From IMG/VR virus record IMGVR_UViG_2663762849_000013: 5,076 bases of DNA; one strand, 5' to 3'. This DNA is from a virus (lineage: Duplodnaviria > Heunggongvirae > Uroviricota > Caudoviricetes). The notes under the pieces are model-generated. The model did not search any database. It worked only from the letters and a program-made list of their open reading frames with translations, and was not told the DNA's origin. Position numbers and translations under genes: made by a program. This document shows positions 3,589-3,962 of the stretch, piece after piece (the first letter of the stretch is position 1; each line of letters starts with the position of its first letter).

Positions 3589-3777
3589 TTATCCAGCCGG
3601 TGTTTCGTTATTCAGGTACAGCGATACTTTTTTTACCGGGAGGCATTCACCAGAAATTTTTTGCTCGTCTCTTGCCTGGAGGCAGGATTCTTTACTGGCA
3701 TAAATTCCGGTAATCACATTCTGTGATTCACCCGTTATAAGAAAAACCGTCATCATCAGTGCAAATGCTGAAGTCAT
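3589..3777 (-). CDS. ydfD: YdfD-like small membrane protein (Qin-type prophage lysis/toxic peptide family)
   Basis: The 62-aa ORF has a hydrophobic N-terminus (MTSAFALMMTVFLITG). Its ATG overlaps the dicB stop in an ATGA arrangement (3774..3777), indicating translational coupling. Size and position directly downstream of dicB match ydfD of the Qin dicB operon. Confidence 0.6.
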   Translation of the reverse strand: MTSAFALMMTVFLITGESQNVITGIYASKESCLQARDEQKISGECLPVKKVSLYLNNETPAG

Positions 3778-3962
3778 TGACGTTCTCCGAAAATACCAAG
3801 TTCAAGAAGAGCAATTCGGGAAAGTATGGAATTATCATTGAGCAGATAAGGCTCATATTTCCTCATATTAATGGCATCTTCAGTAAACTCCCGGTTACTG
3901 AGCAGAACACCAATATCAAAACAACCTTCAGACGTATTAACGTTTGGTAATAACGTTTCCAT
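3774..3962 (-). CDS. dicB: DicB-family cell division inhibitor (62 aa), starting at the internal ATG of the 97-aa ORF
   Basis: The translation METLLPNVNTSEGCFDIGVLLSNREFTEDAIN closely matches the N-terminal half of E. coli K-12 DicB as I remember it. GAGGA lies 7 nt upstream of the ATG at 3962..3960, and the resulting length equals that of DicB. The 35-codon upstream extension (from ATG at 4067) has no ribosome-binding site and covers the DicF terminator region. The gene is about 175 nt downstream of DicF, as in Qin. Confidence 0.8.
   Translation of the reverse strand: METLLPNVNTSEGCFDIGVLLSNREFTEDAINMRKYEPYLLNDNSILSRIALLELGIFGERQ

Follow-up and report, generated by a model that had tools for sequence, protein, structure and literature searches.

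By its sequence, the open reading frame (ORF) considered here is an intact dicB gene, corresponding to a common and already annotated allele. The window, i.e., the whole stretch of DNA analyzed, is an entire 5,076-bp draft contig (GCA_000936105.1, CCBY01000343.1) bearing insertion sequences at both ends, and its dicB is an ordinary, named, widespread and already known allele that lies in a degraded prophage fragment. Relative to DicB of Escherichia coli K-12, the encoded protein presents a conserved N-terminal half and a diverged C-terminal half, a contrast that quite probably reflects, in the main, phage mosaicism together with constraint on the N-terminal region across the DicB family. The class to which the window allele belongs is referred to below as type B and the K-12 class as type A.

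Identification of an intact dicB gene

The features recognized in the window are listed in Table 1. The original prediction of a DicB homologue, which had been offered without mention of a strand, holds for the minus strand. The product of the ORF, METLLPNVNTSEGCFDIGVLLSNREFTEDAINMRKYEPYLLNDNSILSRIALLELGIFGERQ, comprises 62 residues read from an ATG to a TGA and is recognized over its full length (residues 1-62 of 62) by Pfam family PF05358 (DicB; 125.5 bits, cut-off 27, E = 6.4e-37) and by NCBIfam model NF049927 (CellDivInhibDicB; 114.2 bits, cut-off 100), with K-12 DicB scoring 132.8 bits on the latter. PHROG 1251 takes in both proteins, the window protein being matched at E = 5.7e-41. Moreover, the window protein is identical to RefSeq entry WP_000449175.1, annotated as 'cell division inhibition protein DicB'.

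The mechanically defined ORF that contains dicB reaches further upstream, to a GTG at position 4067, and comprises 97 residues. The ATG at position 3962 is an in-phase internal start within this longer ORF, as in K-12, where translation of DicB beginning at an internal, in-phase start was described by Cam et al. (1988), as cited in PMC8835842. The dicB leader and the ribosome-binding site are identical to those of K-12 at the DNA level. In this manner, several attributes of DicB were found, namely, a length of about 62 residues, an in-phase internal ATG preceded by its own Shine-Dalgarno sequence, a place in a dicBF operon within a lambdoid early-left region, and those N-terminal residues that are critical in K-12 DicB.

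Table 1. Features of the 5,076-bp window, ordered by position.
Feature	Position	Strand	Basis or comparison
IS600	~1..104		99% identity; left end of window
Lambda-type integrase, Arm DNA-binding domain	93..731	-	Cut by IS600 after ~residue 208 of 376
Excisionase (xis), intact	709..957		
YdfE-like/exonuclease gene, 823 codons	1022..3493	-	In-frame TAG at 2939..2941
ydfD-like DUF1482 gene	3589..3777	-	Pfam PF07358, E 2.9e-15; ATG overlaps dicB stop (ATGA)
dicB CDS, type B allele	3774..3962	-	62 codons + TGA; ORF list and translation
Type B C-terminal half, dicB codons 36-62	3777..3857	-	11/27 aa (41%) and 44% nt identical to K-12
N-terminal half, dicB codons 1-35	3858..3962	-	28/35 aa (80%) identical to K-12
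Near-identical island, dicB codons 26-32	3867..3887	-	95.2% DNA identity to K-12
Variable cassette, dicB codons 16-25	3888..3917	-	Within the 'conserved' N-terminal half
K-12 Qin-like block	3905..4558	-	93-100% DNA identity; alignment and sliding identity
Shine-Dalgarno sequence GAGGA	3970..3974	-	7 nt 5' of dicB ATG at 3962; read from sequence
DicF small RNA gene	4137..4188	-	Rfam RF00039, 76.7 bits, gathering score 48, full length
ydfC homologue, 72 aa	4531..4749	-	70/72 identical to K-12 YdfC
IS1 end	4842..5076	+	Inverted repeat GGTGATGCTGCCAACTTACTG and start of insA; InsA Pfam domains

Comparison of the window protein with K-12 DicB

K-12 DicB, a protein of the Qin cryptic prophage (b1575; NP_416092.1) read from NC_000913.3 as MKTLLPNVNTSEGCFEIGVTISNPVFTEDAINKRKQERELLNKICIVSMLARLRLMPKGCAQ, is likewise 62 residues long. 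BLASTP aligned the two proteins without gaps, with 39 of 62 positions being identical (E = 4e-24). These identities are unevenly distributed, with 28 falling in residues 1-35 and 11 in the 27 residues that follow. Residues 1-33 had been said to track the K-12 N-terminus closely, and this was borne out by the alignment, with the peptide that had been quoted in fact spanning 35 residues. The claim that the C-terminal half is unlike that of K-12 was confirmed as well, since the pairwise alignment originally proposed as a check revealed this half to be less conserved than the N-terminal half.

Within the first 14 residues, 13 are identical to K-12, including L5, the sole change being a lysine-to-glutamate replacement at position 2, where glutamate is the consensus residue of the DicB family. 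Across that family, invariant columns cluster within residues 1-35. The two proteins also differ in net charge (-5 for window DicB and +3 for K-12 DicB overall; -2 versus +3 for the C-terminal half) and in pI (4.4 versus 9.0), while relative to K-12 DicB, the type B protein includes a proline at position 38 and lacks C45 and C60.

Codons 16-25 constitute a variable cassette, reading DIGVLLSNRE in window DicB and EIGVTISNPV in the K-12 protein, with NIGILLSNRE and DIGIQLSNKD representing further variants. This cassette sorts independently of the C-terminal type.

Given that the C-terminal half shares only low identity with K-12 at both the amino acid and nucleotide levels, it could be proposed that this half bears no homology to DicB whatsoever, and instead corresponds to a replacement tail generated by a frameshift or a fusion. 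Such an origin is scarcely credible. The two C-terminal halves are of equal length, align without gaps and end with the same ATGA overlap with the downstream gene, and the profile matches extend to residue 62. When the K-12 C-terminal half was shuffled, none of 200,000 shuffles attained the 11 identities observed and only two equalled the BLOSUM62 score. True frameshifted or insertion sequence-fused tails, such as those of database entries P0052, P0115 and P0129-P0133, look quite different. A frameshifted or non-homologous C-terminal half was thus ruled out by the Pfam and NCBIfam profiles, together with the shuffle test. Indeed, the hydrophobic positions 40, 41, 46, 47, 50, 51, 53 and 55 are retained in type B and, as judged from the shuffle test, the type B C-terminal half is homologous to that of type A.

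A mosaic junction within dicB

Near-identity to K-12 extends some 600 nt upstream of dicB, and includes non-coding DNA and dicF. The Qin-like block in which this DNA lies comprises the 3' end of ydfC, intergenic DNA, dicF, the dicB leader and dicB codons 1-19, and its low-coordinate edge, at position 3905, is a mosaic junction. Within dicB, DNA identity to K-12 is 94.7% over nucleotides 1-57, falls to 55.6% over nucleotides 58-75 (codons 20-25), returns to near-identity over nucleotides 76-96 (codons 26-32), and amounts to 36 of 81 nucleotides, aligned without gaps, in codons 36-62, with DNA identity of about 44% continuing through the ydfD-like gene that follows. Synonymous divergence from K-12 (pS) stands at 0.08 over codons 1-19 and reaches saturation, at 0.70, over codons 36-62, meaning that the two halves of the gene differ in age as well as in the constraint acting on the protein. 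The same division is seen among the neighboring genes, with YdfC and DicF being 97% and 100% identical to their K-12 counterparts, respectively, as compared to 45% for YdfD and 41% for the C-terminal half of DicB.

Further support for recombination within dicB is provided by the manner in which the codon 16-25 cassette and the C-terminal type are combined. All four combinations occur among the cluster representatives, namely, window cassette with type B (39), K-12 cassette with type A (37), K-12 cassette with type B (6; e.g., P0005 and P0011) and window cassette with type A (4; P0066-P0071), a four-gamete pattern that shows recombination within the gene. At the same time, the C-terminal type of DicB matches the type of YdfD at every locus examined, in a sample biased to type B, meaning that the 3' half of dicB and ydfD travel as one module. 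The upstream block of type B loci, at 75-98% identity to K-12, is not tied to the C-terminal type; this comparison, in which locus L070 did not align, lends weak support.

What could have been read as a lineage-specific change in one half of the protein is thus largely a recombination junction, given the rise in synonymous divergence and the extent of near-identity upstream of the gene. In the explanation that we favor and hold to be quite probable, the ydfC-dicF-dicB 5' block would share recent ancestry with Qin of K-12, whereas the 3' half of dicB and the downstream ydfD-like gene would belong to a deeply diverged module, with crossovers presumably having occurred at the near-identical island of codons 26-32. 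Constraint on N-terminal residues throughout the family would represent a second cause of the contrast between the two halves.

C-terminal classes of DicB and their distribution

Among database DicB proteins, two main classes of C-terminus are seen, along with a third that lies near the second of these. The type A C-terminus reads ...KRK[QH]ERELLNKICI[VL]SMLARLR..KGC.Q, that of type B reads ...MRKYEPYLLNDNSILSRIALL[EK]LGIFGE.Q, and the Citrobacter-like C-terminus, near type B, reads ...YEPYLLMDGSILSFLALNSLGVFKEE. No description of such classes was found in the searchable literature.

When 5426 complete E. coli genomes were considered, full-length type B genes were seen in 1041 (~19%) and full-length type A genes in 3975, while any dicB 5' end is found in about 4200 of the 5426. 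Types A and B apparently occur together in some 800 E. coli genomes, a figure obtained by arithmetic from these totals and not by direct count. The very protein encoded in the window is found on at least 1000 contigs and, with the window counted, at 59 of 92 loci with a recognized dicB copy. The type strain of E. albertii encodes the identical protein, and that species carries both type A and type B. Species-representative genomes contained only seven dicB loci, too few for a picture at the species level. Any suggestion that the C-terminal half of the window protein reflects a special or lineage-specific change, as the original prediction had implied, finds no support in these counts, with the identical protein being a named RefSeq DicB and its class occurring in nearly one in five of the complete E. 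coli genomes.

Type B has also already been encountered experimentally. The primers used in a study of 'dicB' from O157:H7 strain NCTC 12900 match the window gene exactly, at positions 3774..3796 and at its 5' end, with that study, the only one found to have used this allele, reporting only expression and a deletion phenotype (PMC6915034).

Beyond these classes, the DicB family is narrow. When 1.84 billion representatives were searched with a profile for distant relatives, only 42 matches emerged, mostly fragments or alleles fused by insertion sequences or frameshifts. Those relatives seemingly comprising the C-terminus only (P0129-P0133) were considered as a distinct family and rejected, as these are really disrupted type A genes. 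More generally, the disrupted 'DicB' database entries (P0052, P0115 and P0129-P0133) present frameshifted tails, foreign N-termini and IS1 fusions, e.g., ...EDAIGDAANLLI. That so many database entries are disrupted suggests that dicB is frequently inactivated in genomes.

Predicted actions of the type B protein

K-12 DicB binds MinC's C-terminal domain, with the resulting complex blocking FtsZ-ring function, and MinC mutants that fail to bind DicB show none of the known DicB phenotypes, ManYZ inhibition and lambda exclusion among them (PMC6832061). Both ZipA-dependent septal targeting and the MinC-dependent inhibition of ManYZ that leads to phage exclusion are known for the K-12 allele only (PMC6832061). 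The N-terminus of K-12 DicB is essential, in that no residue can be removed and L5 is critical, although K2A, K2G and K2R replacements are tolerated (PMC4967827). At the other end of the protein, the last 8 residues are dispensable, whereas C-terminal deletions of 12-20 residues weaken activity (PMC4967827), such that the C-terminal region is not irrelevant.

Since window DicB retains 13 of its first 14 residues, L5 included, it likely acts by the same MinC-dependent mechanism as does K-12 DicB. By homology to the K-12 protein, window DicB would, through its interaction with MinC, inhibit ManYZ and exclude lambda-like phages.

The pN/pS values obtained from 15 type B DNA alleles are 0.13 for codons 1-35 and 0.14 for the 27 codons of the C-terminal half (codons 36-62). 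Although the sample is small, this supports the type B C-terminal half being as constrained as the N-terminal half, rather than being a decaying tail. AlphaFold2 (AF2) predicted helices at residues 24-36, 38-42 and 46-55 in type B and a single long helix spanning residues 24-60 in type A, in models of moderate confidence (pLDDT ~80; pTM 0.36-0.54) both generated from one mixed alignment. No solved DicB structure was returned by a sequence search of the PDB at E values of up to 1, and a Foldseek search with the AF2 model yielded chance-level matches only (best E = 8.5 in the PDB and 6.2 in BFVD).

These properties raise the alternative that the type B C-terminal half confers a different partner or target specificity, with the N-terminus still engaging MinC. 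Here, the acidic, proline-kinked C-terminal half would shift septal, ZipA-dependent targeting or the choice of inner-membrane targets, and type A and type B copies residing in the same cell would be non-redundant. In agreement, types B and C present a C-terminal half with a charge of -2 to -3, as compared to +2 to +3 in type A (where the pI is 6.5-9.0), the two cysteines of type A are absent from type B, P38 is present and the predicted secondary structures differ. Purifying selection on the type B C-terminal half further implies that this region does something, and both types are found in E. albertii, as well as in the E. coli genomes apparently carrying the two. Nonetheless, we consider a change in specificity to be quite unlikely. 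Both types reside in hosts whose MinC and ZipA are essentially alike, the hydrophobic positions between residues 40 and 55 are retained, the most diverged stretch corresponds to the last 8 residues, i.e., those dispensable in K-12 DicB, and it is the N-terminus that is the critical part of the K-12 protein (PMC4967827). The occurrence of both types together is, moreover, expected merely from the presence of several prophages per genome, and the structural differences come from models of moderate confidence drawn from a single mixed alignment. There is, in the same vein, a small chance that the discrete C-terminal classes, the basic and cysteine-bearing type A and the acidic and proline-kinked types B and C, differ in activity. 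Were this so, the classes could differ in, for example, septal targeting, potency, regulation or inner-membrane targets, strains carrying both would gain non-redundant functions, and experimental knowledge of DicB would cover one class only.

Operon neighbors and the state of the prophage

The order of genes in the window, ydfC-dicF-dicB-ydfD-ydfE/exo-xis-int, is that seen at the right end of Qin and in intact prophages integrated at ompW. The window dicB would lie in a remnant of an ompW-type prophage, its class being one that lambdoid prophages carry in Escherichia and Shigella. The DicF sequence is identical to that of K-12 and lies 175 nt upstream of dicB, within the Qin-like block. The ydfD-like product shares 28 of 62 residues (45%) with K-12 YdfD, a lysis protein that inhibits IspG, an activity ascribed to the K-12 protein.

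Other parts of the prophage have decayed. The IS600 and IS1 ends of the contig hint at a possible origin in Shigella. The in-frame TAG in the exonuclease gene replaces the TGG (W185) of an intact E. coli homologue and splits the product into a 184-residue YdfE_N/YdfE_C piece and a 632-residue Rv2179c-like exoribonuclease piece. IS1 was inserted 92 nt upstream of ydfC, interrupting a ydfB-like gene; indeed, the match to intact prophages ends at position 4841, within the ydfB-like gene of intact relative L095. IS1 hence parts ydfC-dicF-dicB-ydfD from the region that, in intact relatives such as L095, contains the early-left promoter and repressor. In K-12, dicBp, located upstream of ydfA, drives transcription of the whole dicBF operon, for which no internal promoter is known (PMC10448788). 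In the window, no minus-strand promoter-like site was found between positions 3500 and 5076. Because IS1 has severed the operon from the sole promoter known for it, dicF and dicB are probably impaired in their expression in the source strain, which would be weak or lost.

Taken further, this could mean that the window dicB is a silent relic of a decaying prophage, with its promoter lost and the intact ORF reflecting only how recently this occurred. IS1 insertions are classically polar and, together with the integrase cut short by IS600, the nonsense codon in the exonuclease gene, the interruption of the ydfB-like gene upstream of ydfC and the lack of an internal promoter, either known in the K-12 operon or found in the window, such polarity is in line with this scenario. 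Still, we regard silence of the gene as somewhat unlikely, given that dicB, dicF, ydfC and the ydfD-like gene have each remained intact, that the encoded protein is a widespread allele, so that the gene itself offers no sign of decay, and that transcription through or from IS1, be it by read-through or from an IS1-derived promoter, is possible. Moreover, the question concerns expression in one strain and not the identity of the gene, namely, an intact type B dicB.

Relation to known DicB proteins and other division inhibitors

For the window itself, these findings matter little and contain nothing that would surprise a specialist. As regards DicB in general, mechanistic work, including MinC binding, truncations and ManYZ inhibition, has all addressed the K-12 allele, while roughly one in five complete E. 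coli genomes, EHEC lineages included, encodes a second class that is 41% identical over residues 36-62 and of opposite charge in this region, with at least one O157:H7 study having called the type B allele simply 'dicB'.

Among known DicB proteins, WP_000449175.1 and WP_000449172.1 are encoded by lambdoid prophages, both ompW-type and others, found in EHEC, ETEC and E. albertii, and the copies found in the PPompW prophages of EHEC are 95% identical to window DicB. In the case of WP_000449175.1, the protein is the same; the difference is that the window prophage is degraded, with IS600 and IS1 at its bounds.

Small toxic proteins encoded by prophage early operons are described in PMC3961180 and bioRxiv 10.1101/2020.11.19.390815 as blocking FtsZ-ring function. 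Lambda Kil, KilR of Rac, YmfM and the host protein SulA are, like DicB, small toxic proteins that block the FtsZ ring. None of the four, however, shows sequence kinship to DicB, and these act on FtsZ directly or via ZipA, whereas dependence on MinC, absent from all four, is the hallmark of DicB.
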